32,000 bases of DNA, from the NCBI GenBank assembly GCA_002421785.1, contig DIRZ01000003.1, positions 90,001 to 122,000 on the forward strand, given 5' to 3'. Positions 2-30,311 of this stretch are shown here, piece by piece (within the stretch, counting starts at the first letter, position 1; each line of letters starts with the position of its first letter). The DNA is from Candidatus Saccharimonadota bacterium (GTDB lineage Bacteria > Patescibacteriota > Saccharimonadia > Saccharimonadales > Saccharimonadaceae). The translations under genes and the position numbers were made by a program. The notes beneath the pieces are model-generated. The model was not told where the DNA came from and did not search any database. It worked only from the letters and a program-made list of their open reading frames with translations.

Positions 2-517
2 GCTACTGCATTTTTGCAGACAGTAGGCGTTACCATTCATCAAGCTAGTGTGTCTGTCGATGAAATACAGGCAGGCACCGGCATAGAGGTAGCCATACGA
101 AAAGCACACGACGCTTATAATCAGCTTCAGGAGCCGTTGTTTATCAATGATGCTGAGTGGGCAATTCCTGCGCTTGGCGGCTTCCCGGGGCCATACATGA
201 AATATATAGTCGGCTGGTTGACGCAGCAGGATCTACTGAAACTCATGGAGGAGAAGTCGGACCGTAGCCTAATACTTCGCGATACCGTCGTATATTACGA
301 TGGCTCCGTAGAAAAGGTCTTTACCCACGAAGTTCATGGTAAAATTCTTACATCACCTCAGGGCGAGCCCCGTGGACCATTTGTCACGCAGATATTTAGT
401 CTACGCCAGGATGGTAAGAGTATTGCAGAGGACACAACTATAGGGTTTAGTGAGGATGAGGCAATACTCTGGGCGGAGTTCGCAACATGGCTAAAAACGC
501 ATATCCCCCAGGCCTGA
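2..517 (+). CDS. Non-canonical purine NTP pyrophosphatase (HAM1/ITPase family), 5' partial
   Basis: Translation contains VDEIQ...NDAEWAIPALGGFPGPYMKYI, which resembles the HAM1/ITPase core (ELQ ... ED.. L...AL.G.PGPY.K). The frame is open back to the window edge, and about 25 N-terminal residues typical of the family are missing. The gene therefore probably starts upstream of the window; the tracked TTG at 14 is probably internal. Confidence 0.75.
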   Translation, partial: ATAFLQTVGVTIHQASVSVDEIQAGTGIEVAIRKAHDAYNQLQEPLFINDAEWAIPALGGFPGPYMKYIVGWLTQQDLLKLMEEKSDRSLILRDTVVYYDGSVEKVFTHEVHGKILTSPQGEPRGPFVTQIFSLRQDGKSIAEDTTIGFSEDEAILWAEFATWLKTHIPQA

Positions 518-541
518 GACCCTAACTTCTAAGTATGTAGT

Positions 542-2029
542 GTGGCCGACAATTTTGTGTCGACTAGCTATTTCGGTTATGATATAATCATGCGCCTACC
601 TAACAACCCGACCATCTATGAAATACACACTGCCGCGTACCTAAACGAACTCGCCGTCCGCGACAAAACGAACATTTATCTGGACACAATCCCCGATGAT
701 GAGCTGAATCGACTCATGACTCTCGGCATTGATGCCGTTTGGTTGATGGGCGTTTGGCAACGGAGTGCTGCGGCTGTGGCTGTGGATATGGCAAATGAGG
801 GGCTGCAGGCAGAGTTTCGCGCAGTCCTGCCAGATTTTACTCCAGAAGATGTCATCGGTTCTGCCTATGCCGTGCAGGATTATACTGTTGATGCTCGGTT
901 TGGGGGCGACGATGCATTAGCGCGACTACGTGAGCGACTTTCTCATCGCGGAATTGGCCTGATTCTCGATTTTGTACCCAACCATACCGCCCCAGATCAT
1001 GTGTGGACACGTGAACATGTAGACTACTACATTCATAGCGACAGCAATGCCGCTCTGCGTGAGCCGGATGCCTATGCTGCTGTTGGTGATCACAGTATTG
1101 CCATGGGGCGCGATCCTAACTCAGCCCCCTGGCCAGACGTGTTACAGATGAATGCGTTTTCACCAGGCTACCGCAAAGCAACGGTAGATACTTTAGGGCG
1201 TATTGCATCGATGAGCGACGGCGTTCGCTGCGACATGGCCATGTTGATGCTAGATGATGTCGTACAGCGCACGTGGGGACAGCTCGCAGGTGAGCCGCTC
1301 GCAACCACCTATTGGCAGGACGCCACGCATGCTGTGCGCGAGCAGCACCCTGACTTTACCTTCATCGCCGAATGTTACTGGGACACTGAGCGTACGCTGA
1401 TTGAGCAGGGCTTCGACTACTGTTACGACAAGACACTCTACGACTACCTTGTTGCGAATGATCCGGCCGGTGCGTGCGACTACCTCGCGCGAACGGCTGA
1501 CATCCAGTCGCACATGCTTCATTTCGTCGAAAATCACGATGAGCCTCGAGCAGCAGCTAGGCTCCCCCTTGACCAATCGATGGCGGCTGGCGCAATAACA
1601 GCAACATTGCCTGGGGCAAGCTTGCTCCATCATGGGCAAGTAGAGGGTAAACAGATAAAAATACCCGTACAGCTGGGGCGTGGGGCCCATGAACTGCCCT
1701 GTTCGGCTACTCGGGATTTCTACGGTAAGTTATATGCTTGGCTCAAGGAGTCAAATATTCGAGATGGAACCTGGTCACCACGCGCAACCCAAGATTCGGC
1801 AATCATTACCTACGAGCTGCAGCACGAGCATACCGTCGCCATGCTGCTGGTTAATTATTCGGAGACGCGCACCACCATTGATCTTCCCATTCCCATAGCT
1901 AACTATAGTGATGTGCTAGCGGACAACGACGGCGCGCCCATCATAGTTCAAGCGGCCGCCGACAAGCAGCTTCAGCTCGGGCCATGGCAAACGCGGCTGC
2001 TCGTCTATGATCAGTCGGCTGTCTCGTAG
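542..2029 (+). CDS. GH13 alpha-amylase-family glycoside hydrolase (cytoplasmic, no signal peptide)
   Basis: All four GH13 catalytic regions are recognisable: LILDFVPNH (I), GVRCDMAM (II, nucleophile Asp), FIAECYW (III, acid/base Glu), FVENHDEPR (IV). The start is ambiguous: GTG at 542 or in-frame ATG at 590 (MRLPNNPTIYEIH). Confidence 0.85.
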   Translation: MADNFVSTSYFGYDIIMRLPNNPTIYEIHTAAYLNELAVRDKTNIYLDTIPDDELNRLMTLGIDAVWLMGVWQRSAAAVAVDMANEGLQAEFRAVLPDFTPEDVIGSAYAVQDYTVDARFGGDDALARLRERLSHRGIGLILDFVPNHTAPDHVWTREHVDYYIHSDSNAALREPDAYAAVGDHSIAMGRDPNSAPWPDVLQMNAFSPGYRKATVDTLGRIASMSDGVRCDMAMLMLDDVVQRTWGQLAGEPLATTYWQDATHAVREQHPDFTFIAECYWDTERTLIEQGFDYCYDKTLYDYLVANDPAGACDYLARTADIQSHMLHFVENHDEPRAAARLPLDQSMAAGAITATLPGASLLHHGQVEGKQIKIPVQLGRGAHELPCSATRDFYGKLYAWLKESNIRDGTWSPRATQDSAIITYELQHEHTVAMLLVNYSETRTTIDLPIPIANYSDVLADNDGAPIIVQAAADKQLQLGPWQTRLLVYDQSAVS

Positions 2030-2069
2030 CGACTTAGTGGGTTTCGACCATCTATAGACGTGTCGAATG

Positions 2070-2098
2070 TTGACTTGTTTAAACTAAAGTGATATAAT
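2070..2098 (+). promoter_or_regulatory. Near-consensus sigma70-type promoter: TTGACT, 17 nt spacer, TGaTATAAT (extended -10)
   Basis: TTGACT at 2070-2075, a 17 nt spacer, and TATAAT at 2093-2098 preceded by TG at 2090-2091. It lies in the intergenic gap upstream of the CYTH gene. The predicted TSS near 2105 leaves only about 9 nt before the ATG at 2114. Confidence 0.65.
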
Positions 2099-2113
2099 AT
2101 ATAGAATCATTCA

Positions 2114-2653
2114 ATGAGCAGTGCGCCTATGTACGCGGCATCAAGGGCCAGATCAATCAATAGTACTACACGGAACCCTATGGAAATAGAAAGAAAATAT
2201 CTCATTGCAACCTTACCCCCTCTCGCGGGAGTGCTTTCAAATAACATACTCCAAGGCTATCTGGCTATCGATGATACTCACGAAGTCCGCCTCAGGCAAA
2301 TAGGACCTGACTATATACTGACAGTGAAAGTAGGCACCGGTTTAGTCAGGCAGGAGCATGAAACGGTAATATCCAAACAGCAGTTTAGCTTGTTGTGGCC
2401 TGCAGTAAACGATAGGTCAGTGAGTAAGGTACGCTACTACTTACCGGATGATATATCTGTTGATATATACGAAGGCCCACTAGCTGGGCTTACCGTTGCC
2501 GAAATTGAGTTTGATACTGTGCGTGCAAGCGATAGTTACATACCTCCTCACTGGTTTGGCCCGGAAGTCACTTCTGACCTCAGGTTCAAGAACCGGTCAT
2601 TGGCCTCAGCAGGCACAATCCCTAGCATCGATCAAGATATATCAAAAGAATAG
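2114..2653 (+). CDS. CYTH-domain protein (triphosphate tunnel metalloenzyme / class IV adenylate cyclase-like)
   Basis: MEIERKYLI matches the N-terminal ExExK signature of CYTH domains, and a later LTVAEIEF strand is also present. The domain begins at Met23 (nt 2180), so the true start could be 2114 or 2180. Neither start has a Shine-Dalgarno. Confidence 0.8.
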   Translation: MSSAPMYAASRARSINSTTRNPMEIERKYLIATLPPLAGVLSNNILQGYLAIDDTHEVRLRQIGPDYILTVKVGTGLVRQEHETVISKQQFSLLWPAVNDRSVSKVRYYLPDDISVDIYEGPLAGLTVAEIEFDTVRASDSYIPPHWFGPEVTSDLRFKNRSLASAGTIPSIDQDISKE

Positions 2654-3861
2654 TGCACTTTGCTGAATTTTTCTATCATCATCACGACACTCGCCCGTAC
2701 ATCCTCGCCATGGATCGCACGAGATAGTATATCGGCTAGCTTATCCATGTCTTCCTGCTGCGCTCCCCGGCGCGTGATTTCTTGTACGCCTAGGCGAATA
2801 AAGGCCCCTTGGTCATACATTTCGTCGAAGGCAACGGCAATATGATTTGAAAAAAAGTACTTTGCTATGTCTTCGGTCGACCCATGAGCGGACGTCATGA
2901 GGTGGACTTGGTGGGTATACGTCCATTCTTTGTCATCGGAACGCCGACATACGAGGCCGCGCTTGGTTAGGCCATCAGCTAAGGTGCGGGCATTCTCTAT
3001 AATCTGGTGTGCGTACTGCTCACCAAAAGACAACATTTCTTGGACAGAAATACATAGACCGATTGTATGGTCGAGGTGTGTTGACGAGTAATAACCATGC
3101 GCTTGGTTGTCTACATGGCTAAATATACCCTGGCTTTTACAGAGTATAATACCCTTATGAGTCCCCGGGAGTGTTTTATGCGTGTTTGCACTAATGACAT
3201 CAGCACCACAATCAAGTGGATTGGGGAAAGTGCCGCCGAGTATTAAACCAAAAACATGACTAGCGTCAAAAACGATTCGATTGTTTGGCCCGACCGCTTG
3301 GCGAAGACGCGCGATGTCAAACGGGATGAGGCTGTATGACATATCGATATATAGACAGATCGGGCGGTCAATACGGGAAATTTGGGTCGCAAATGCGTCA
3401 TAGTCGATGTCGAGTGTTCTAGTGTCCATCGGTAAAAGCCTAGATTCTCTCCCGGCATTCTTAATTATTCCAATCGTAGCGAAGTGACCGCCGTAACTGG
3501 GGTCGAGGCTGTATACAACGTCACCTATCTGCGTTAACGAAAACACCGATATCATCATGGCATGGAGCCCAGAAAGTGGCGCGAAGATTGCGCCGTACGC
3601 GTGTAGCCGTTCGCTTAGCTGGCGCTGGGTGGTGTCAACGACGTGATTGATTCCATTTTTTGCAAGCGATGTGAACCCATGAAACAAGGTGAAATCATTG
3701 TTCTCATGTGCCGGGCCAAAGTTATAGCGAGATGCGATATCGCTCATATTAAAGCGTTTAGCAGACTCAGAAACAACATTTTCGTTTGGGGTTAAGTGAA
3801 GATACTTATCGTTAGCTTCAATATCTGCAGTAATTTCGTGAACAATAGTGTCATAGTTCAT
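2632..3861 (-). CDS. Serine hydroxymethyltransferase-fold PLP-dependent enzyme (divergent SHMT-like)
   Basis: HLTPNENVVSESAKRF resembles the SHMT N-terminal L.LI.SEN..S motif. FAPLSGLHAMM resembles VQPHSGSQAN. ISANTHKTLPGTHKG resembles TTTTHKTLRGPRGG and retains the PLP lysine. The protein is too divergent to call a housekeeping glyA. Confidence 0.7.
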   Translation of the reverse strand: MNYDTIVHEITADIEANDKYLHLTPNENVVSESAKRFNMSDIASRYNFGPAHENNDFTLFHGFTSLAKNGINHVVDTTQRQLSERLHAYGAIFAPLSGLHAMMISVFSLTQIGDVVYSLDPSYGGHFATIGIIKNAGRESRLLPMDTRTLDIDYDAFATQISRIDRPICLYIDMSYSLIPFDIARLRQAVGPNNRIVFDASHVFGLILGGTFPNPLDCGADVISANTHKTLPGTHKGIILCKSQGIFSHVDNQAHGYYSSTHLDHTIGLCISVQEMLSFGEQYAHQIIENARTLADGLTKRGLVCRRSDDKEWTYTHQVHLMTSAHGSTEDIAKYFFSNHIAVAFDEMYDQGAFIRLGVQEITRRGAQQEDMDKLADILSRAIHGEDVRASVVMMIEKFSKVHYSFDIS

Positions 3862-3875
3862 ATACAGGCCTATCG

Positions 3876-4451
3876 CTATTGAGCGTATGCGATTTTAATA
3901 TAGTGCTCAATAAGGGCGTTGTCGCGGCGCTGCATGAATGACTTATCATAGGTATCTGCTTTGTAAGAGTTTATCAGCTTTAGCGCATGAGCCGGCGTAT
4001 CTGCCCATACCAGGTGGGAACCATCTTCCAGCGGCTTACCGAGGTGCGTATCATCAATGTCGCCAGTATAGCAGTACGATATTTGGATCAGCTTCCAGTC
4101 AGAGCGGTATTCAAGTGTGAGGCCAAGGGGCTTCAGCTTAATACTCGTTGCGTCTACGCCGACTTCTTCTGCAATCTCACGGACAACACCAGTCATGAAG
4201 CTCTCGCCATCTGACTCTGTTAGTGTGTACTGCAGCCCACCGCCAGGTATTTTATTGACACCTTCTGAATCTAAACTCTGGAGCGCAATCCGACCAGATG
4301 ATGGATCGACAAGGATACAGCGCGCAGCCAAGCGTATTGTCCAGTCAGACAAATTCATTTTATATGGAGCGTCATTACTGACCACAAGCGACTCACTTGT
4401 TAGGTCGTGTATTGTTGCAATGTGGGGTAGTATTTGTTCAATTTCTGTCAT
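3876..4451 (-). CDS. Nudix hydrolase
   Basis: The Nudix box is recognisable with an insertion: GGGLQYTLTESDGESFMTGVVREIAEEVGV (G..E..REhxEExGh). I place the start at ATG 4451: AGGAG lies 8 nt upstream and the upstream gene's stop is 1 nt away. The tracked start at 4556 would overlap that gene by about 100 nt. Confidence 0.75.
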   Translation of the reverse strand: MTEIEQILPHIATIHDLTSESLVVSNDAPYKMNLSDWTIRLAARCILVDPSSGRIALQSLDSEGVNKIPGGGLQYTLTESDGESFMTGVVREIAEEVGVDATSIKLKPLGLTLEYRSDWKLIQISYCYTGDIDDTHLGKPLEDGSHLVWADTPAHALKLINSYKADTYDKSFMQRRDNALIEHYIKIAYAQ

Positions 4452-4452
4452 G

Positions 4453-5565
4453 TTAGTTACTCCTAATTCTATTATAGTTTTCGGGAAGTGTCCATAAATC
4501 GCCACCATACGTGTTCCACGGACTACTGGATAGTCGCCTACCCTGTGCGCCGGCAAGTTGCTCTACGATCCCGCGCAGTGTCGCGTTTGATTTTTCACGA
4601 CCACCAAACGAAAGGAATGATTCTCGCGGGGAATACCGCTGCCTATGGTCCATAATGTCGTGATACGCTTCGGCAATGCCCTCTGGTGTGCGCTCGCAAA
4701 ACTTAGACGTAAGCCCGTCCTGCATGAATCGTTCCATACCTCCATGAGTAGGTAAAGCAACAATCATAGGCTTGTCGCATGCAAGCATTTCTGTCGCAAA
4801 CCGATTAACCGCTTCTGTTTCCTCGGATAAATAGATACCGGTGTTGCTTTTGTGCATAAACCGATCGCGAATTTGAACTTTGGTTAACGGCCCCAGAACA
4901 GTACTACCATCAGGGTTTACATGATCCCCAGTGGTGCTAAAGTCATCGGCATCGTATATAGTGACGTTGCCAAGCAAAGCAGCTGCACCCATTACCATTT
5001 TCCGGTATTGCACACTATCCGCATGTTTACGTTCAGAGGCCATCAGCCATCCGTAAATCATGATACTGATTTCTGGGTGCGCCTCAGCGACTTCAAGTAG
5101 CAGCTCCGTCTTTTTGGTCGGGAACCACTTAGCTATGTAAAGAATGTCCGACTCAGGTTGCTGAGGCTCAGAGCTGGGCGAAAATATATCTGGATCGACG
5201 AATAGTCCATCAGCCAACGCAAGCGAGTGGGGGACATTACGAGCGGCACCGTTTAAGTACTCATGTTCACCGGATTTATTAGAAAATATATTGCAATCGG
5301 TACGCGTAACATCGACTGGCACCGTGTCGCTTTGCGTTGTTGATACCACTAACCAGCGCTCCCGGAACGAAGGGTCGACATGCTCCATGTAGTCGACAAA
5401 ATCATTTGCCACGTAGTCGCCTACCAGTACAGCGCCCATACCGCCATCCGTATCTGGCTCGAGCAGAGTAAACACGGGTAGTGCACCTCCCTTTTCGAAG
5501 TTGGTTGCAAAGCGCGAAAAGGGCATACGCTCCTCGCTACTTACTGTTGCTTCATGCGTTTTCAT
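4453..5565 (-). CDS. GT-B fold glycosyltransferase-like protein (GT4/GT1-like C-terminal domain)
   Basis: ILYIAKWFPTKKTELLLEVAEAHPEISIMIYGW and EAVNRFATEMLACDKPMIVALPTHGGMERFMQDGLTSKF resemble the GT4 patterns (i.fvGR..p.KG...ll.a; E.fg...lEAmA.G.PVia...gG..E.v.dg.tG). GAGGA lies 7-8 nt upstream of the ATG. The N-terminal half is not recognisable. Confidence 0.5.
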   Translation of the reverse strand: MKTHEATVSSEERMPFSRFATNFEKGGALPVFTLLEPDTDGGMGAVLVGDYVANDFVDYMEHVDPSFRERWLVVSTTQSDTVPVDVTRTDCNIFSNKSGEHEYLNGAARNVPHSLALADGLFVDPDIFSPSSEPQQPESDILYIAKWFPTKKTELLLEVAEAHPEISIMIYGWLMASERKHADSVQYRKMVMGAAALLGNVTIYDADDFSTTGDHVNPDGSTVLGPLTKVQIRDRFMHKSNTGIYLSEETEAVNRFATEMLACDKPMIVALPTHGGMERFMQDGLTSKFCERTPEGIAEAYHDIMDHRQRYSPRESFLSFGGREKSNATLRGIVEQLAGAQGRRLSSSPWNTYGGDLWTLPENYNRIRSN

Positions 5566-12969: not shown

Positions 12970-13548
12970 CTATTCGCCTGGCTGGAGCCGTTTCGATATC
13001 TCAACGGTTGGGTCGGATATGGAAACGACAATATATGGTGAGCTGATGTCATGTGGGTCGAACCCATCAATCTCAAGTCGCGGATCGGTCAAGATAAGCG
13101 CTATATCGTACTCATCGTCGTTGATGCCTCTTCCCCCAACCATCGCATCAAAAGACGGCATCGGTGCGATAGCAACGTGGTTGAATGTGCCGACGACCCA
13201 CTCACCTTCGACAACGTTCTCGCAGGCGATTCCTGACTCAGTAACATAGAAGGTAAATGCACCCTCGCCGACAACAACAGTATCACCTGAAGTCAACTCA
13301 GAAAGCCTCGGTACATCCGCTCGGTTGAGCATCACCTCGATGAATTGGTAGTCCTCGGGCCGAAGAGGAACTCCTGGCTCTGCCTCAAGAGAAGCCTTCA
13401 CGTGGTCATTAAACGCGCCACGAAGTAGCTTCATGTCATCGCCCAGCGACACGGCAATATGTTCACCCCGGGTATCAATCCCAAGTTCTTCTGAAAGACC
13501 GCCGACTATTTCAAAAAACGAATTGTCATCTGGTATGTGCTCACGCAT
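12970..13548 (-). CDS. Hypothetical acidic protein D (192 aa) of the rpsG-fusA cassette
   Basis: Long ORF on the same strand as its neighbours. ATG 13548 lies 1 nt after the stop of gene C (TAAtATG). The tracked TTG start at 13569 would overlap C. It shares an N-terminal peptide and module motifs with B and C. No known family was recognised. Confidence 0.75.
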   Translation of the reverse strand: MREHIPDDNSFFEIVGGLSEELGIDTRGEHIAVSLGDDMKLLRGAFNDHVKASLEAEPGVPLRPEDYQFIEVMLNRADVPRLSELTSGDTVVVGEGAFTFYVTESGIACENVVEGEWVVGTFNHVAIAPMPSFDAMVGGRGINDDEYDIALILTDPRLEIDGFDPHDISSPYIVVSISDPTVEISKRLQPGE

Positions 13549-13549
13549 A

Positions 13550-15781
13550 TTAAAACGCCATCTCCTCAAGCGTGCTTAGTGGTACGACATATCGTGCAAC
13601 GACATCGTTTCGCTCCGGTGTAGGCACACGCATGACAAGGGCAATCTCGCTGGTCTTTAGGAACGGGTGCTCAGTGACGACGCCATCGAGAGTCGCAAGG
13701 ATCTCCTGGCCGAGGATGTGCTTAGCGGAATCATCAATAAATGGCCCCGCGATTCGGAGTGTGCGTCCTGCGCCCAAAATCGCCTCGAGCGCATCAGCTG
13801 CCACGTCCATAGCACTGGGATTATCGTGAAATGCAAGGGCGATATCACGAAGCCCCTCGACACCATCAAACTCAGTCATCTCTGTCTGAGGCTCGCTGTC
13901 GATTGCTCCCGCAAGATACTCGAGATTCTTTTGTAGCATTTGTCGCGAAGACTGCGCGATATCAAGTTTCGCGGTTCGGGCGAGCGCTTCGCTACGACGG
14001 GCGTCATAATCAAGACTCGGGAGAGAGTATCCCGCAGGAAGTCCGAGGTCAACAACGAACCGTCGCGCCGCGTTTATCGTCACCATAGATGCGTTAGTGT
14101 CAGGATCTGTAATCGTAATCGTATTATTCCCATGCCCGAGATCGATAAACTCAAGATACGCACGGATCACGTGTTGTTCATCATCCTCACCATAAGAGCG
14201 TGTTTGAACATTAGCCTCAGCGAGGATTCCCTTTGCACTGCTAAATACATCTGGGGAGCTTACGCCAAATCCCTTTACTTGTATATCAAGCGTCTGTGAC
14301 TCTTGATCGATCACACGACTAAAGGTAGCCTCGGGAATCCTTAGCGCTGGGCCAATGACCTCGATAACAGGGTTCATGTCCGTTTGCCACCGTTGAAAGA
14401 ACGCTGAAATTCGATAATTGATCATCTCGTAGTCGTCTGCAATCGCCGCCTTGCTCGGATACGGTCGCTCGGCCTCACTTGAGGCATATTGGCGAACTAT
14501 TTCATGTAGTCCATGCAACTCAGCGAGGAACTGTCGCTGCCTCTCTTTTTCATCCTCGGGTATATCCTGTTCACCATCTCTGTCACTCGCCTCATCTGCG
14601 TGCTCGACGCTGGTCATTGAAGCTGCGTCTATCACTGCCTCACCTAGCCGTTGTTCAAGTGGTCGCACTCCAAAATTGCTGTCGAACTGCTCATTTGGCT
14701 GAATAATCGTATCTTCATCAAATGGATACGCACTCGTCTCCGGACGGTTAGCCGTCAGCCGTGTGAGGCTATCGATAGGGATATATATTGGGGTACGTCC
14801 ACCTTGCGCCTCTGGTACGAGGTACCACGTCTCGAGCGTGGGACGGTAAGTGATGAGCGTTTGACCTTCTGCTGTATCAGGCGTCGGAAAAAGACGTACA
14901 TTGCTAATGAGCAGCTCACGGAGCGTTCCATCATATTCTTTGGGCACTTTCGCATATGTCATCGTACGTCCATAGATGACACCTCGAACGACTGCGTCGT
15001 AAGTTGCATTGTCAAATGCGAGTCGATCGGTGATATACGTTTCAATCAGGTCGAGCACTTCATCGTCACCCATTGTCGTGTCAGCTTTTGACACATCAAA
15101 TGTCACGCTAAAGTCATCGAGAAGTTGACGGATAAGCTCAGGATCACGGCAGCCATCTGGCAACGCCTGAACTGCAGCGAATACTTCGGGGAAATTGGCG
15201 CGCACAAACTCCTCAGCACCTTCACGAGAGGGTTGGTGTGGCTCCATATACTCGATGTCGTCGGGGCGACTCGTGAACCACACTTGTCCATCCTCGTAGT
15301 CTTCGTCGAGACCATATTGCATCACGACGCGGTACATTGATCCATACTCACCCATTGGAACTCTCTCGACGTCAAAGCCTTTGACGATCGCCCGGAACCC
15401 TGCCGCATCAAAATATTCTCCGAGAAGATCTTCTTTGCGCTCGCCGATTCCAGGAAATGCGCCTTCATGGGCGTCGTCAACAACATTCTCATCGAGCGCG
15501 TATTCAGTTGGTCGGAGTCGTCCGGTTACCTTGATTGCTTCGTCGCGAAATCCAAGCATATCCCAATCACCGTTGAGATTGAGGAGTACTTCTTGGATGG
15601 TGTCTTCTGACGGGTTAGTCGCAAAATTCAGTGCGTCTTCGGCGCTTTTTGCATCGTGTATAAGACGGAGGATGCCCGGGTCAATCGTGTCACGAAGACT
15701 CGGTTCGGTCTCCCATGTGTTTTTGATGAGCGCATCAAATGCATCGTCATCGTTAGAGTGTGGCTGTGACTCTCGTATCAT
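13550..15781 (-). CDS. Hypothetical acidic multi-module protein C (743 aa) of the rpsG-fusA cassette
   Basis: An uninterrupted 2.2 kb ORF; the only competing ORFs are short antisense ones. It has no TM or signal sequence, is rich in D/E, and shows repeated sequence patterns shared with B and D. No known family was recognised. Confidence 0.8.
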   Translation of the reverse strand: MIRESQPHSNDDDAFDALIKNTWETEPSLRDTIDPGILRLIHDAKSAEDALNFATNPSEDTIQEVLLNLNGDWDMLGFRDEAIKVTGRLRPTEYALDENVVDDAHEGAFPGIGERKEDLLGEYFDAAGFRAIVKGFDVERVPMGEYGSMYRVVMQYGLDEDYEDGQVWFTSRPDDIEYMEPHQPSREGAEEFVRANFPEVFAAVQALPDGCRDPELIRQLLDDFSVTFDVSKADTTMGDDEVLDLIETYITDRLAFDNATYDAVVRGVIYGRTMTYAKVPKEYDGTLRELLISNVRLFPTPDTAEGQTLITYRPTLETWYLVPEAQGGRTPIYIPIDSLTRLTANRPETSAYPFDEDTIIQPNEQFDSNFGVRPLEQRLGEAVIDAASMTSVEHADEASDRDGEQDIPEDEKERQRQFLAELHGLHEIVRQYASSEAERPYPSKAAIADDYEMINYRISAFFQRWQTDMNPVIEVIGPALRIPEATFSRVIDQESQTLDIQVKGFGVSSPDVFSSAKGILAEANVQTRSYGEDDEQHVIRAYLEFIDLGHGNNTITITDPDTNASMVTINAARRFVVDLGLPAGYSLPSLDYDARRSEALARTAKLDIAQSSRQMLQKNLEYLAGAIDSEPQTEMTEFDGVEGLRDIALAFHDNPSAMDVAADALEAILGAGRTLRIAGPFIDDSAKHILGQEILATLDGVVTEHPFLKTSEIALVMRVPTPERNDVVARYVVPLSTLEEMAF

Positions 15782-15787
15782 GAACTA

Positions 15788-15821
15788 ATTAAATAGAGAT
15801 GCGCCCCTGTTTGCAAGCATA
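15788..15821 (-). promoter_or_regulatory. Promoter-like element with conserved 11-mer upstream of gene C (TATGCTTGCAA; TTGCAA, 17 nt, TTTAAT, 6 nt, ATG)
   Basis: The minus strand reads TAG-cgctTATGCTTGCAAacaggggcgcatctctaTTTAATtagttcATG. There is no Shine-Dalgarno. The same 11-mer occurs upstream of gene B. Confidence 0.5.
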
Positions 15822-15825
15822 AGCG

Positions 15826-16815
15826 CTAGAATTGTGGTGGCGTCGGTGTATCATATCGCGCTGAACTCATCCAGGCGATTGATGTACAGGGAATGATAAG
15901 TTCTCGCTCAGAGCCATTTGGTTCATACGCAGTCGCTTCGATAAACGGTACACAGCGGTGCGTGCCCTTCAGTTCCTGCGCGCGAATATCAGACGGACGC
16001 AATTCGACGTCTTTGACCCTCATCGTCCGTGTGTACGGATAGCGCAAAACCACAGGAATACCATCGCCGTTATCTTTGACGGAGATACACTCGCCCGCAA
16101 CTGAGATATGGTAATTGACATGCGGATCGATTTCCGCGCGTGAACGAAGATATTGTGCCGCATCGCGGACGTGCTCAAGTTGTTCTTCGTCACTCAAGTT
16201 TGCTTCAAAGACAAACTCACCGAAATCTTTGATAATCTGATCGTCGCGACGGCTGGTAAATGCAAGTTCATCAATAGTATTTGCATCCTCCGGGTAATAA
16301 TACGCGAATCGACGCTCTCGTAGCTCGGGGGACGGAAATGGTAGCTCGATACCTGCGAGTTCCTCAAGGGGGAGAACAATAGGCATCCGAGTGCCATCAC
16401 CTTTTCCGGCGTCTATTTCCACAAGATGCGATATTTTCGGGAAATGATCATTTGATTGCTCGGTCGAATCAGTGAAAAATATGAAACCGCGAGAAATTGC
16501 TTCTTGATCAACGTACGTCGAGGACTGCATTTCGGGTAATCCTGGGACTACCGCCCAACCACGGCCGCTGACTGTCACGGGCATATTCATATATCGCCAC
16601 CTCGCATCGAGCTGCTGTACATGAGCCTGTCGGATCGAAAGAGGGTCGATCTCGGTGTCGGTGAGCATCGATGTTGCTACTATCTCTTGACGAGAGAGTG
16701 CTTCACTGTGTATTTCTTCTAGATATGGATCACCAAGCTGTGGCTCTAGTCCATCGGTCATCTCGCGAAATATATCGTCAAAGTCTGGATGCTTACTGCT
16801 TGGTATCTCGCTCAT
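15826..16815 (-). CDS. Hypothetical acidic two-module protein B (329 aa) of the rpsG-fusA cassette
   Basis: Long ORF on the same strand. Two internally similar halves are visible: NMPVTVSG...GDGTRMPIVLPLEEL and NYHISVAG...NGSERELIIPCTSI. The N-terminal peptide is similar to that of D. No known family was recognised. Confidence 0.8.
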   Translation of the reverse strand: MSEIPSSKHPDFDDIFREMTDGLEPQLGDPYLEEIHSEALSRQEIVATSMLTDTEIDPLSIRQAHVQQLDARWRYMNMPVTVSGRGWAVVPGLPEMQSSTYVDQEAISRGFIFFTDSTEQSNDHFPKISHLVEIDAGKGDGTRMPIVLPLEELAGIELPFPSPELRERRFAYYYPEDANTIDELAFTSRRDDQIIKDFGEFVFEANLSDEEQLEHVRDAAQYLRSRAEIDPHVNYHISVAGECISVKDNGDGIPVVLRYPYTRTMRVKDVELRPSDIRAQELKGTHRCVPFIEATAYEPNGSERELIIPCTSIAWMSSARYDTPTPPQF

Positions 16816-16823
16816 AGATTACT

Positions 16824-16858
16824 ATTTAACCCCACCGTGGCTTCTCGTTGCAAGCATA
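16824..16858 (-). promoter_or_regulatory. Promoter-like element with conserved 11-mer upstream of gene B (TATGCTTGCAA; TTGCAA, 18 nt, TTAAAT, 8 nt, ATG)
   Basis: The minus strand reads TGA-tactaccTATGCTTGCAAcgagaagccacggtggggTTAAATagtaatctATG. There is no Shine-Dalgarno. Confidence 0.5.
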
Positions 16859-16865
16859 GGTAGTA

Positions 16866-17603
16866 TCAGGCGGCTGTTCTGCTATCTATCTCACGTGTCG
16901 GAAAATGCGTCGTTAAATCCGTCATCTGATAGTGCATGATCGGCTGGAGCCACCTGGCAACATCGGTGGCACTATCAAGATCACCCGTATACTCAAGCCT
17001 TAGTGCCTCAAGCGCATGCATCCCAACAACTGCTCTTGTCGACTTTCGGTACGCTCGTCTTAATCGCGCTTCGTCATGCCGATCGGTTATCTCCACAAGT
17101 CGCTCTGCATCGCGTGCAAGTCGCGTCAGCGCTCGATACCCTCTCACGTAACGCTCCATTGGCTCAATACGAGGTACAGTTGTTTCATGGGTGACTTCGT
17201 GGTGTAGGTGGTGAAGCTGTGGTGGTAATATCACCATCTGTGTCCTGAGCTCACGAAATACGAGGGGGATATGAGCGAGCGCCCCCGCATGTTCAAAGTG
17301 GGCGGGATCGTACGCATCCCGTGGCCAATGGACATGATGTCGGTTTGGTGTCGCAGGGTGATTTGATCGTGTCGTCACCACTGGCCATTCGTAGGAATCA
17401 TCGATGAAGCGTTCGACTACCTTTTCCGCAGTCTGACGCGCGAGAACAAACCCCCGGTCATCCGTCACAGGGGCAATACGTCGAAGATGACGTGGATTTA
17501 TTTTCCATACATCAAGTGGAGGCAGATGACCCTCCGGTCCAAACTGACGACTATGCATGTATGTATCGTAACGGATTGTCATCGAATTCGCTACAAAAAA
17601 CAT
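16866..17603 (-). CDS. Hypothetical His-rich protein A (245 aa, or 238 aa from Met8) of the rpsG-fusA cassette
   Basis: ORF on the same strand, 47 nt downstream of rpsG. It contains NRHHVHWPRDAY...FEH...AHIP...PPQLHHLHHEVTHE, which includes an HExxH string. The protein is basic and Arg-rich, unlike B, C and D. The start is ambiguous (ATG 17603 or ATG 17582). Confidence 0.7.
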   Translation of the reverse strand: MFFVANSMTIRYDTYMHSRQFGPEGHLPPLDVWKINPRHLRRIAPVTDDRGFVLARQTAEKVVERFIDDSYEWPVVTTRSNHPATPNRHHVHWPRDAYDPAHFEHAGALAHIPLVFRELRTQMVILPPQLHHLHHEVTHETTVPRIEPMERYVRGYRALTRLARDAERLVEITDRHDEARLRRAYRKSTRAVVGMHALEALRLEYTGDLDSATDVARWLQPIMHYQMTDLTTHFPTREIDSRTAA

Positions 17604-28219: not shown

Positions 28220-28254
28220 GCATACTAAAACGCCACGCCATAGGCGTAGTATGC
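28220..28254 (-). promoter_or_regulatory. Structured element in the rpoB leader (8 bp + 4 bp stem with 3 nt bulge, 8 nt loop)
   Basis: The minus strand reads GCATACTA-CGCC-tatggcgt-GGCG-ttt-TAGTATGC. It lies downstream of the candidate rpoB promoter and about 115 nt upstream of the rpoB ATG. No U-run follows it, so it is not a canonical intrinsic terminator. Confidence 0.5.
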
Positions 28255-28289
28255 TGTTGACCCACGTTACACAATCTTCATTACTTATA

Positions 28290-28319
28290 ACTATAGCGAA
28301 GTTTGTGCAATTTTGTCAA
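28290..28319 (-). promoter_or_regulatory. Candidate rpoBC promoter: TTGACA, 18 nt spacer, TATAGT
   Basis: The minus strand reads TTGACAaaattgcacaaacttcgcTATAGT, beginning 7 nt after the clpP stop. This implies an rpoB leader of about 180 nt. Confidence 0.6.
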
Positions 28320-28326
28320 CGTTTTT

Positions 28327-28917
28327 CTATGCTTTTGCAATTACATTATCGACGATGCCGTACTCTTTGGCCTGCTCGGCGCTCATCCAAAAATCACGCT
28401 CCATGTCTGCTTTCACTTTTGCGAGCTTCTGACCAGTGTTTTTTGCCATGATTGCAGCGAGTCGCTCCTTTAGTTCCAGGGCCTCACGAAGGCTAATCTC
28501 CTGGTCAGTCACCTTACCCTGCGTTCCGCTACTTGGCTGGTGAATCATCACACGGGAATTTGGCAACACACCGCGCTTACCCTTGGTGCCACTACTCAGC
28601 AGAAACGCCCCCATGCTTGCCTGCAAGCCAATCCCAATCGTTTGTACGTCTGGCTTGATGTACTGAATGGTATCGTAAATCGCAAGCCCATCATACACAC
28701 TCCCGCCTGGACTGTTGATGTACAGCTGGATATCTTTTTCGGGGTCTTCGTTGGCAAGATGGAGCAACTGCGCTACCACAACGTTGGCTGTGTGCTCATT
28801 TACCTCCTCGCCTAAAAAGATAATTCGGTCCTCAAGCAGCCGTGAGTAAATATCATACCCGCGCTCACCGTCACGAGTTTTTACTATCACATTGGGGACT
28901 AAATAGTTCTTCGTCAT
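28327..28917 (-). CDS. clpP: ATP-dependent Clp protease proteolytic subunit
   Basis: 196 aa with [11 protein letters not shown], catalytic Ser in [11 protein letters not shown], His in MIHQP, and Asp in ERDFWMSA. Confidence 0.97.
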
Positions 28918-28923
28918 ATTTCC

Positions 28924-28951
28924 AGTATACTACCAAATTGGCACTCGTCAA
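28924..28951 (-). promoter_or_regulatory. Candidate clpP promoter: TTGACG, 16 nt, TATACT, 6 nt, ATG (leaderless-type geometry)
   Basis: The minus strand reads TTGACGagtgccaatttggtagTATACTggaaatATG. The -35 and spacer lie inside the CIRCE-like palindrome. There is no convincing Shine-Dalgarno. Confidence 0.5.
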
Positions 28952-28964
28952 GTGCGAGTGCCAA
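28938..28964. promoter_or_regulatory. CIRCE-like inverted repeat (putative HrcA operator)
   Basis: TTGGCACTC-N9-GAGTGCCAA compared with the CIRCE consensus TTAGCACTC-N9-GAGTGCTAA gives 8 of 9 matches per arm with symmetric substitutions. Pairing extends to 12 bp (28936-28947 with 28955-28966). It lies between tig and clpP. Confidence 0.7.
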
Positions 28965-28984
28965 TTACCTTCACAGGGGTAGTA

Positions 28985-30274
28985 TTATTTTTTGGTGTTA
29001 AGGGCTACTAGTTGGTCAACCGTCTTTTCGGTGATCAGTCGATTTGCTACTTCTCGCTGCACTTCTGGTTCATCGAAGCGCTTTGCCATGTCGGGGTTGT
29101 TCGCGTACTGCGTACGGTAGGTGTTCAGGTGTTCTGCAAGCTCATCCGCCGTTGCCTCTACCTTGAGTACCTTGCTGAGCTCTGCAAGTACCAGACCGGC
29201 TTTGATGCGGTTTTCGGCTGCTTCGTTAGCCTCGGCCTTAACCCAGGCGTCCCTGTCTGCCAATCCCTTGCTTTCCAGATACTGATCAAACGTCATGCCC
29301 TGGTACATAAGATTCTGTGTGAGGTCTTGTTCAATCGATCGAACTTGATCGTCGCGAAGTACCTCAGGAACGCTCACTTTACTTTTAGCGACAAGTTGTT
29401 GCACCAAATCATCCTTCAGCGCATCACTTGCTTCGCGCTCTTGCTGGGCGGTGATTTCTGAGGTGATATCGGCCTTCAATTCGTCGATAGCAGTAAATGG
29501 CCCAACCTTAGCGGCAAACTCGTCGGTCAGCTCAGGAAGGACAACTTGATTGACCTTCTTCACCGTTACTTCGAAGACAACCTTTTTACCCGCCAAATCT
29601 TTGGCTTGATACTGCTTTGGGAACGTCAAAGGAACGTCAAAAGCGTCTCCTGCTTTGTGCCCAACAATCGCTTCTTCAAACCCAGGGATAAACTGGCCAG
29701 CGCCGAGCGATAGCGGATAATCTTCGCCCTTCCCACCGTCGAACGCAACGCCGTCTTTCTTGCCCAAGAAGTCGATAACCGCTTCGTCACCAAGCTTCGC
29801 TGCTTCTTTGGTTTCCTTCTTCTCAGCAAACCCTTTACGAATACGGTCGAGTACTTCGGTCACATCGGCATCAGTTACGTTCACTGGCTTTTTGGTAACT
29901 TTCAGTTTAGTGTGGTCGCCAAGCTTCACTGCTGGCAGAATATCCGCTTCGGCAGTGAACTCTAGTTCCTGGCCGGGAACAAACTTCTTAACTTCGACAG
30001 CTGGGCGCTCAAGAACTTGTAGTTTATTTTCGATAAAGCTGGTTGCGACCGCCTTACTGAGGGCGTTTTCTAGCGTTTCCTGGGCTAATACATTCGGGTC
30101 GACGTTCTTCGCCACCATTTCTAGCGGCACATGACCTTTACGAAAGCCTGGGACTTTCGTGTCTTTAGATAATTTTTTTAGGGCAACTTGCTCAGCGTCG
30201 GCAAGCTCATCCTTGGTGACAGAAATCGTCACGAGGACGCGGGTGTCGGATACATGTTTAACAGAACTCTTCAT
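28985..30274 (-). CDS. tig: Trigger factor
   Basis: 429 aa with the N-terminal ribosome-binding region (GFRKGHVP matches the trigger factor GFRxGxxP signature), a central FKBP-like region (GQFIPGFEEAIVGHKAGD), and a C-terminal helical domain. Confidence 0.95.
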   Translation of the reverse strand: MKSSVKHVSDTRVLVTISVTKDELADAEQVALKKLSKDTKVPGFRKGHVPLEMVAKNVDPNVLAQETLENALSKAVATSFIENKLQVLERPAVEVKKFVPGQELEFTAEADILPAVKLGDHTKLKVTKKPVNVTDADVTEVLDRIRKGFAEKKETKEAAKLGDEAVIDFLGKKDGVAFDGGKGEDYPLSLGAGQFIPGFEEAIVGHKAGDAFDVPLTFPKQYQAKDLAGKKVVFEVTVKKVNQVVLPELTDEFAAKVGPFTAIDELKADITSEITAQQEREASDALKDDLVQQLVAKSKVSVPEVLRDDQVRSIEQDLTQNLMYQGMTFDQYLESKGLADRDAWVKAEANEAAENRIKAGLVLAELSKVLKVEATADELAEHLNTYRTQYANNPDMAKRFDEPEVQREVANRLITEKTVDQLVALNTKK

Positions 30275-30282
30275 AATAACGC

Positions 30283-30311
30283 ATTATAACAGATAAGCGC
30301 CCGGCTGTCGC
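30283..30311 (-). promoter_or_regulatory. Candidate tig promoter: GCGACA, 17 nt, TATAAT, 8 nt, ATG
   Basis: The minus strand reads GCGACAgccgggcgcttatctgtTATAATgcgttattATG. The -10 is perfect, there is no Shine-Dalgarno, and the -35 overlaps the pilin gene stop. Confidence 0.55.

Follow-up and report, generated by a model that had tools for sequence, protein, structure and literature searches.

A conserved CIRCE element, probably an HrcA operator fused with the clpP promoter, in Saccharibacteria

CIRCE elements serve as operators of the repressor HrcA at the dnaK and groE operons of Bacillus subtilis, according to the part of PMC3192767 that cites Zuber and Schumann (1994). The B. subtilis elements and the element described in this work share the same 9-bp inverted repeat, the 9-bp spacer, and the core GCACTC/GAGTGC; both are linked to repression (predicted, in the present case) of genes for protein quality control, and in both systems the gene for the repressor has an operator of its own, which in the saccharibacterial relatives of the present genome is found at hrcA. 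A CIRCE operator is reportedly present at clpP of Streptococcus salivarius as well. The clpP gene of this species is described as dually regulated, with co-regulation of CtsR targets by CtsR and HrcA, in the part of PMC3842655 that cites Chastanet and Msadek (2003), a study also cited in PMC6305308. In Mycoplasma pneumoniae a CIRCE lies between tig and lon, and HrcA regulates both chaperones and proteases (PMC7737663). Sequence forms of the type TTgGCACTC are given as CIRCE at groESL of Desulfovibrio (PMC545781, Table 8). The control of proteases by HrcA has precedents, and the saccharibacterial site described below is a lineage-wide variant of this known theme.

The present site is located in a 32-kb stretch of saccharibacterial DNA (the whole stretch that was analysed, 32,000 nucleotides, is referred to as the window) with a G+C content of 50%, whose minus strand carries hisS, a pilin-like gene, tig, and clpP, followed by rpoB and rpoC, in this order. 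Homologues of its trigger factor with about 76% identity are found, for example, in "Candidatus Saccharibacteria bacterium oral taxon 955", for which complete genomes are 0.84–1.01 Mb in size. A trigger factor identical to that of the window is encoded on a 194-kb contig of JGI metagenome 3300001592 and in several Logan assemblies. The features of the locus are as follows.

28985–30274, minus strand: tig, the upstream gene, encoding trigger factor of 429 aa (Pfam Trigger_N, FKBP_C, and Trigger_C)
28918–28984, no strand assigned: the tig-clpP intergenic region of 67 nt, which holds the whole putative regulatory module
28936–28966, no strand assigned: extended perfect palindrome with 12-bp arms and a 7-nt loop, read directly from the sequence
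28938–28964, no strand assigned: CIRCE core TTGGCACTC-N9-GAGTGCCAA, the predicted HrcA operator
28946–28951, minus strand: predicted −35 hexamer TTGACG (promoter scan), lying in the CIRCE spacer and overlapping the first base of the promoter-proximal arm
28924–28929, minus strand: predicted −10 hexamer TATACT (promoter scan), separated by 16 nt from the −35 and by 6 nt from the clpP ATG
28915–28917, minus strand: ATG of clpP, with the predicted transcription start at or adjoining its A (28917)
28327–28917, minus strand: clpP, the putatively regulated gene, encoding 196 aa (Pfam CLP_protease, E = 1.4e-78)

On the plus strand, positions 28936–28966 read AATTGGCACTCG-TCAAGTG-CGAGTGCCAATT, and pairing stops beyond 12 bp, where A faces A one position further out. 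The 9-N9-9 core matches the consensus TTAGCACTC-N9-GAGTGCTAA at 16 of 18 positions, with perfectly symmetric arms and a spacing of 9; its two deviations are mirrored (A>G in one arm and T>C in the other), such that arm position 3 is G/C here whereas it is A/T in B. subtilis. An earlier note on this DNA had claimed a match to the CIRCE consensus at 8 of 9 positions per arm, symmetric deviations that keep the palindrome intact, pairing that extends to 12 bp, and a location inside a 67-nt gap between tig and clpP, all of which agrees with our direct reading of the sequence. Read 5′ to 3′ on the coding strand, the gap and the start codon are TAC TACCCCTGTGAAGGTAA TTGGCACTC GCACTTGAC GAGTGCCAA TTTGGTAG TATACT GGAAAT ATG, and the distance from CIRCE to the clpP ATG is 20 nt. 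A scan of the 32 kb yields this site as the single CIRCE-like match, even when 3 mismatches are allowed, and the chance expectation per window is 0.04 matches to the variant pattern and 0.01 to the canonical one.

The distribution of this exact variant in other bacteria was examined by scanning one genome per species for the 18 specified bases, which provided a sample of at least 120 loci rather than a complete count; the reference proteins on which the sorting of downstream genes was based were verified against Pfam. Among the 120 loci listed, the gene downstream of the variant is groES in 58, a stand-alone groEL in 14, hrcA in 25, dnaK in 3, clpP in 2, and a clpC-type ATPase gene in 1, with about 17 other or unclear cases. 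In about 100 of these 120 listed loci, groES, groEL, hrcA, or dnaK lies directly downstream. The G/C form is therefore a CIRCE variant in common use among Actinomycetota, Alphaproteobacteria, and further groups, and this bears out the identification of the palindrome as CIRCE that had been made from the window alone. The three clpP or clpC cases among the loci listed all belong to Saccharibacteria, for which the other matches listed are at hrcA (L038) and dnaK (L103, L115). The site at clpP shares the G/C at arm position 3 with the TTgGCACTC-type variants known at groESL of Desulfovibrio and seen in other taxa (Actinomycetota and Alphaproteobacteria among them), which are located ahead of groES, groEL, or hrcA, whereas the saccharibacterial site precedes clpP.

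The conservation of the element at clpP was assessed in 80 loci obtained from a metagenome scan with the ClpP of the window as the query, a CIRCE in these relatives being defined as TTRGCACTC-N9-GAGTGCYAA with at most 2 mismatches. Of the 20 ClpP relatives with at least 64% identity and upstream sequence present, 18 have a CIRCE located 9–37 nt before the clpP ATG, while in the remaining 2 (L150 and L152) a clpC-type gene immediately precedes clpP, and L150, the one of these two with enough sequence, has a CIRCE ahead of that clpC. No CIRCE was detected for ClpPs with 63% identity or less, where the best site has at least 6 mismatches. Related loci totalling 519 kb have CIRCE sites solely at clpP, clpC, and hrcA. 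The element accompanies clpP in four upstream contexts, viz. tig, an inserted gene, a divergent M50 peptidase gene, and a clpC-clpP arrangement. Two complete genomes show the element: the layout tig-CIRCE-clpP of the window recurs in CP047916.1, while CP064995.1 has a gene of 329 aa inserted between tig and clpP, with CIRCE remaining immediately before clpP. Two further loci (L026 and L108) have tig in convergent orientation to clpP and the divergent M50 peptidase gene as the upstream neighbour, and CIRCE still lies upstream of clpP. CIRCE is linked to clpP and not to tig, and the association with clpP proposed in the earlier note is thereby extended from a single locus to a group of close relatives.

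In the two loci in which clpC and clpP are adjacent (L150, positions 449–3591; L152, positions 12–1127), both genes are on one strand with gaps of 3–4 nt, and in L150 one CIRCE with a promoter-like sequence stands ahead of clpC of the pair. A stand-alone clpC (L031) also has a CIRCE ahead of it and is preceded by nusA and not by ctsR-mcsA-mcsB. All 26 saccharibacterial sites agree at arm positions 2, 4–6, 8–9, 19–20, 22–24, and 26. At arm positions 1 and 3, a deviation in one arm often has its mirror image in the other (CTA...TAG, ATA...TAT, and TTG...CAA, in L142, L146, L148, and L149), and six lineages have a deviation in one arm only (L144, L151, L153, L155, L156, and L222); five saccharibacterial loci from the exact-variant scan, which are biased to the symmetric G/C form, were left out of this assessment of symmetry. 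The mirrored changes may reflect lineage-specific preferences of HrcA or selection for symmetry.

The promoter scan independently selects TTGACG-16 nt-TATACT on the minus strand, with a score of 10/12. The same geometry is seen in the relatives: of the 26 saccharibacterial CIRCE sites, 24 have a TTG (in the form of TTGAC, TTGCA, or TTGTA) within the spacer, which is otherwise variable, and when the relatives are aligned on CIRCE, a hexamer TATACT, TACAAT, or TATAAT follows 16–18 nt past the spacer TTG. Among 18 lineages, 12 have exactly 6 nt between the end of the −10 and the clpP ATG, and another has 7 nt. A −35 inside the spacer is likewise found at hrcA (L038, L127), dnaK (L103), and clpC (L031, L150). 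The earlier note had the element covering the −35 (TTGACG) and the promoter spacer, a geometry that it regarded as consistent with repression by promoter occlusion; the promoter scan gives the same hexamers, with the upstream half of the spacer covered, and the recurrence of the spacer TTG among relatives is consistent with occlusion. The hrcA and dnaK promoter regions of Saccharibacteria have two tandem CIRCEs (L103, 5801–5900; L115, minus strand, approximately 3069–3160; L038, 3777–3850; L127, 9928–10001), of which the first encloses the −35 and the second, more degenerate, lies past the −10 and reaches the start codon in hrcA. The clpP promoter regions have the first CIRCE only and lack a second one.

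Because the −10 ends 6 nt before the ATG and a Shine-Dalgarno sequence is absent at clpP, the clpP mRNA is predicted to be leaderless, starting at the A of the ATG (28917), and this would be a conserved trait in Saccharibacteria. With a start at 28917, the operator would therefore extend from about −47 to −21. An in-frame TAG is located 15 nt upstream of the clpP ATG, and therefore no longer clpP ORF exists. Other genes of the window do have Shine-Dalgarno sequences (GAGGAG and AAGGAGG at rpoB and rpoC, and a clear one also at fusA), and the genome seems to mix leaderless and Shine-Dalgarno modes of initiation. Upstream of tig (30283–30311, minus strand), a promoter-like sequence, GCGACA-17-TATAAT with an extended TG, stops 8 nt short of the tig ATG, where no Shine-Dalgarno sequence is seen; the tig mRNA may also be leaderless or near-leaderless. 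The CIRCE of B. subtilis is located between the promoter and the start codon. Unlike this arrangement, the operator at clpP encloses the predicted −35 and the clpP mRNA is predicted to be leaderless, and CIRCE would therefore not be transcribed from its own promoter. The targets also differ, being chaperone operons in B. subtilis and clpP here.

In about 47 kb of the 194-kb source contig, to which the loci L001 and L219 contribute about 8 kb and 7 kb outside the window, we found no hrcA, groES, or dnaK and no second CIRCE, clpP being the only heat-shock gene in this region. HrcA is widespread and highly conserved among Saccharibacteria. A search with the saccharibacterial HrcA of L038 returned more than 8000 homologues, all 8000 scored ones at E ≤ 1e-10, and the best 120 of these more than 8000 matches are 81–100% identical to the L038 protein and 231–241 aa long. 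The N-terminal winged helix of the protein aligns well to HrcA of Thermotoga maritima (1STZ, residues 16–91). The saccharibacterial HrcA (P0001, L038, positions 3795–4559, and the best 120 matches) is about 235 aa in length versus 338 aa for T. maritima HrcA, and it matches only positions 106–215 of 215 of the Pfam model for the C-terminal part of HrcA. Some 100 residues in the middle of canonical HrcA seem to be absent from it, which could affect dimerization or chaperone sensing. In the relatives, the hrcA locus has the order lepA-gmk-gmk-hrcA-grpE-dnaK-dnaJ, and L103 and L115 have hrcA and a CIRCE-preceded dnaK on one contig. The saccharibacterial genes preceded by CIRCE comprise hrcA (L038, L127), dnaK (L103, L115), clpC, and clpP, and a tblastn search for groES in the related saccharibacterial loci examined gave no match. 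The earlier note had suggested a heat-shock regulon rewired onto HrcA. The occurrence of CIRCE at hrcA, dnaK, clpC, and clpP within the lineage speaks for this suggestion, whereas the rarity that it attributed to such control of clpP was overstated in view of the precedents of S. salivarius clpP and M. pneumoniae lon.

On the combined evidence of sequence, promoter geometry, and conservation, we consider it highly probable that the palindrome is an HrcA CIRCE operator fused with a sigma-70-type promoter of clpP in a saccharibacterium, with repression by occlusion of the −35. Its sequence is that of an ordinary CIRCE, and the same most likely holds for its function. In the proposed mechanism, the −35 TTGACG would lie within the operator's 9-nt spacer, which is non-specific, and the promoter-proximal arm would occupy the first half of the promoter spacer, with the −10 TATACT next and the clpP ATG 6 nt further on. 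We infer that an HrcA dimer bound to both arms would block RNA polymerase by masking the −35 together with the upstream half of the promoter spacer. Heat or unfolded-protein stress would inactivate HrcA, as it does in other bacteria via titration of GroEL, and clpP would then be derepressed along with hrcA-grpE-dnaK and clpC.

A different reading of the palindrome, viz. that its main role is as a hairpin in the tig transcript at the 3′ end (an intrinsic terminator, or an mRNA-stabilizing or processing structure), its likeness to CIRCE being secondary, draws on the fact that the hairpin begins 20 nt past the tig stop codon and is followed by TTTGG, and that the folding of tig read-through RNA gives −28.9 kcal/mol (z = −6.3). 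We nevertheless regard it as quite unlikely: the arms are kept as sequence, with GCACTC/GAGTGC invariant and without compensatory change; tig of CP064995.1 is followed by its own GC-rich inverted repeat (recognized by eye) and is separated by another gene from clpP, beside which CIRCE remains; CIRCE stays upstream of clpP in the two loci where tig is convergent; and the same element stands ahead of hrcA, dnaK, and clpC. A Rho-independent terminator of tig as the main role was rejected, since the terminator scan did not flag the hairpin, the T tract being too poor, and the element stays at clpP where tig is not upstream. Because any tig read-through RNA would fold into a strong hairpin through the perfectly paired arms of 12 bp, an added RNA-level role on such transcripts, secondary to that of the operator, may exist. 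An outer helix, TACTACC/GGTAGTA (28929–28935 and 28975–28981), would enclose the CIRCE hairpin on such RNA by pairing the region just past the tig stop with the −10 region; no such helix was seen in the relatives looked at, and it may be incidental. An Rfam search of the whole window matched no known RNA family.

If the palindrome is accepted as an operator, it could in principle belong to a palindrome-binding regulator other than HrcA, and the lack of hrcA in the 47 kb of the contig examined, together with the unusually short saccharibacterial HrcA of about 235 aa, could be taken to favor this. Such an assignment is very improbable given the 16 of 18 consensus match, the presence of the identical variant ahead of hrcA in 25 of the 120 loci listed, one saccharibacterium (L038) included, the good conservation of the HrcA winged helix relative to 1STZ, and the lack of a CtsR box nearby. 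With respect to the last point, the CtsR box RGTCAAA-NAN-RGTCAAA has 3 matches in the window at 3 mismatches (2.4 expected), none of them less than 6 kb from clpP, and a CtsR operator at clpP was therefore rejected. The sole point in favor of a chance palindrome devoid of function is that the window holds a single site; against this stand the chance expectation of 0.01–0.04 per window and the presence of CIRCE in close relatives at clpP (18 of 20) or ahead of clpC-clpP (L150). The occurrence of the element is non-random, and because it is conserved in relatives, a chance origin is effectively refuted and retains a negligible probability.

The predicted HrcA operator at clpP can also be compared with the two protease systems introduced above. 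In S. salivarius clpP is reported to be under HrcA control, and HrcA acts there alongside CtsR, whereas no CtsR box is found near clpP in the window, and the clpC of saccharibacterial relatives is preceded by CIRCE and nusA and not by ctsR-mcsA-mcsB. The resemblance to M. pneumoniae lies in a reduced genome, in a CIRCE between the gene for trigger factor and that for an ATP-dependent protease, and in the regulation (predicted, in the present case) of both chaperones and proteases by HrcA. However, the protease of M. pneumoniae is Lon and its transcription is said to proceed from the tig promoter (PMC7737663), whereas clpP here has its own predicted promoter inside the operator.

The saccharibacterial CIRCE represents a new example of a known regulatory system and no new mechanism. 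Its interest lies in the fact that almost nothing is known of gene regulation in Saccharibacteria or other CPR bacteria, and our search of the literature found no paper linking HrcA to either. The sites described here provide a first well-supported saccharibacterial regulon (viz. hrcA, dnaK, clpC, and clpP), which is open to testing, and they define a promoter design, consisting of a −35 within the operator and a predicted leaderless start, that could be used for promoter annotation or for heat- or stress-inducible expression tools in Saccharibacteria, which are now genetically manipulable (PMC10633639). For the heat-shock field, they present a lineage-wide case of a Clp protease under predicted HrcA control, parallel to that of Lon in mycoplasmas, and this case lends support to the view that genome reduction concentrates stress control on one repressor. 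A more far-reaching proposal, which we advance tentatively and hold to have somewhat less than an even chance of being correct, is that one repressor alone, the shortened HrcA (about 235 aa), has master control over the entire proteostasis network of Saccharibacteria and perhaps of CPR bacteria more widely. It would then govern hrcA-grpE-dnaK-dnaJ together with ClpC and ClpP, in the roles of CtsR, ClgR, or sigma-32, and would do so by means of ultra-compact promoters with the −35 in the operator spacer and, for clpP, a leaderless mRNA.

Two other regions of the window have unusual features. Just past the clpP stop, in the clpP-rpoB gap (28230–28319, minus strand), there is a strong promoter-like sequence TTGACA-18-TATAGT (11/12) and, past it, a hairpin resembling a terminator, with a T tract (28249–28233), about 130 nt before the rpoB ATG; this arrangement between clpP and rpoB could be an attenuator in the rpoB leader. 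At 12970–17603 (minus strand), four ORFs of 199, 743, 329, and 245 aa without Pfam matches are located between rpsG and fusA, separating two genes that are normally adjacent in the str operon, and two of these four ORFs have a common upstream motif, TATGCTTGCAA.
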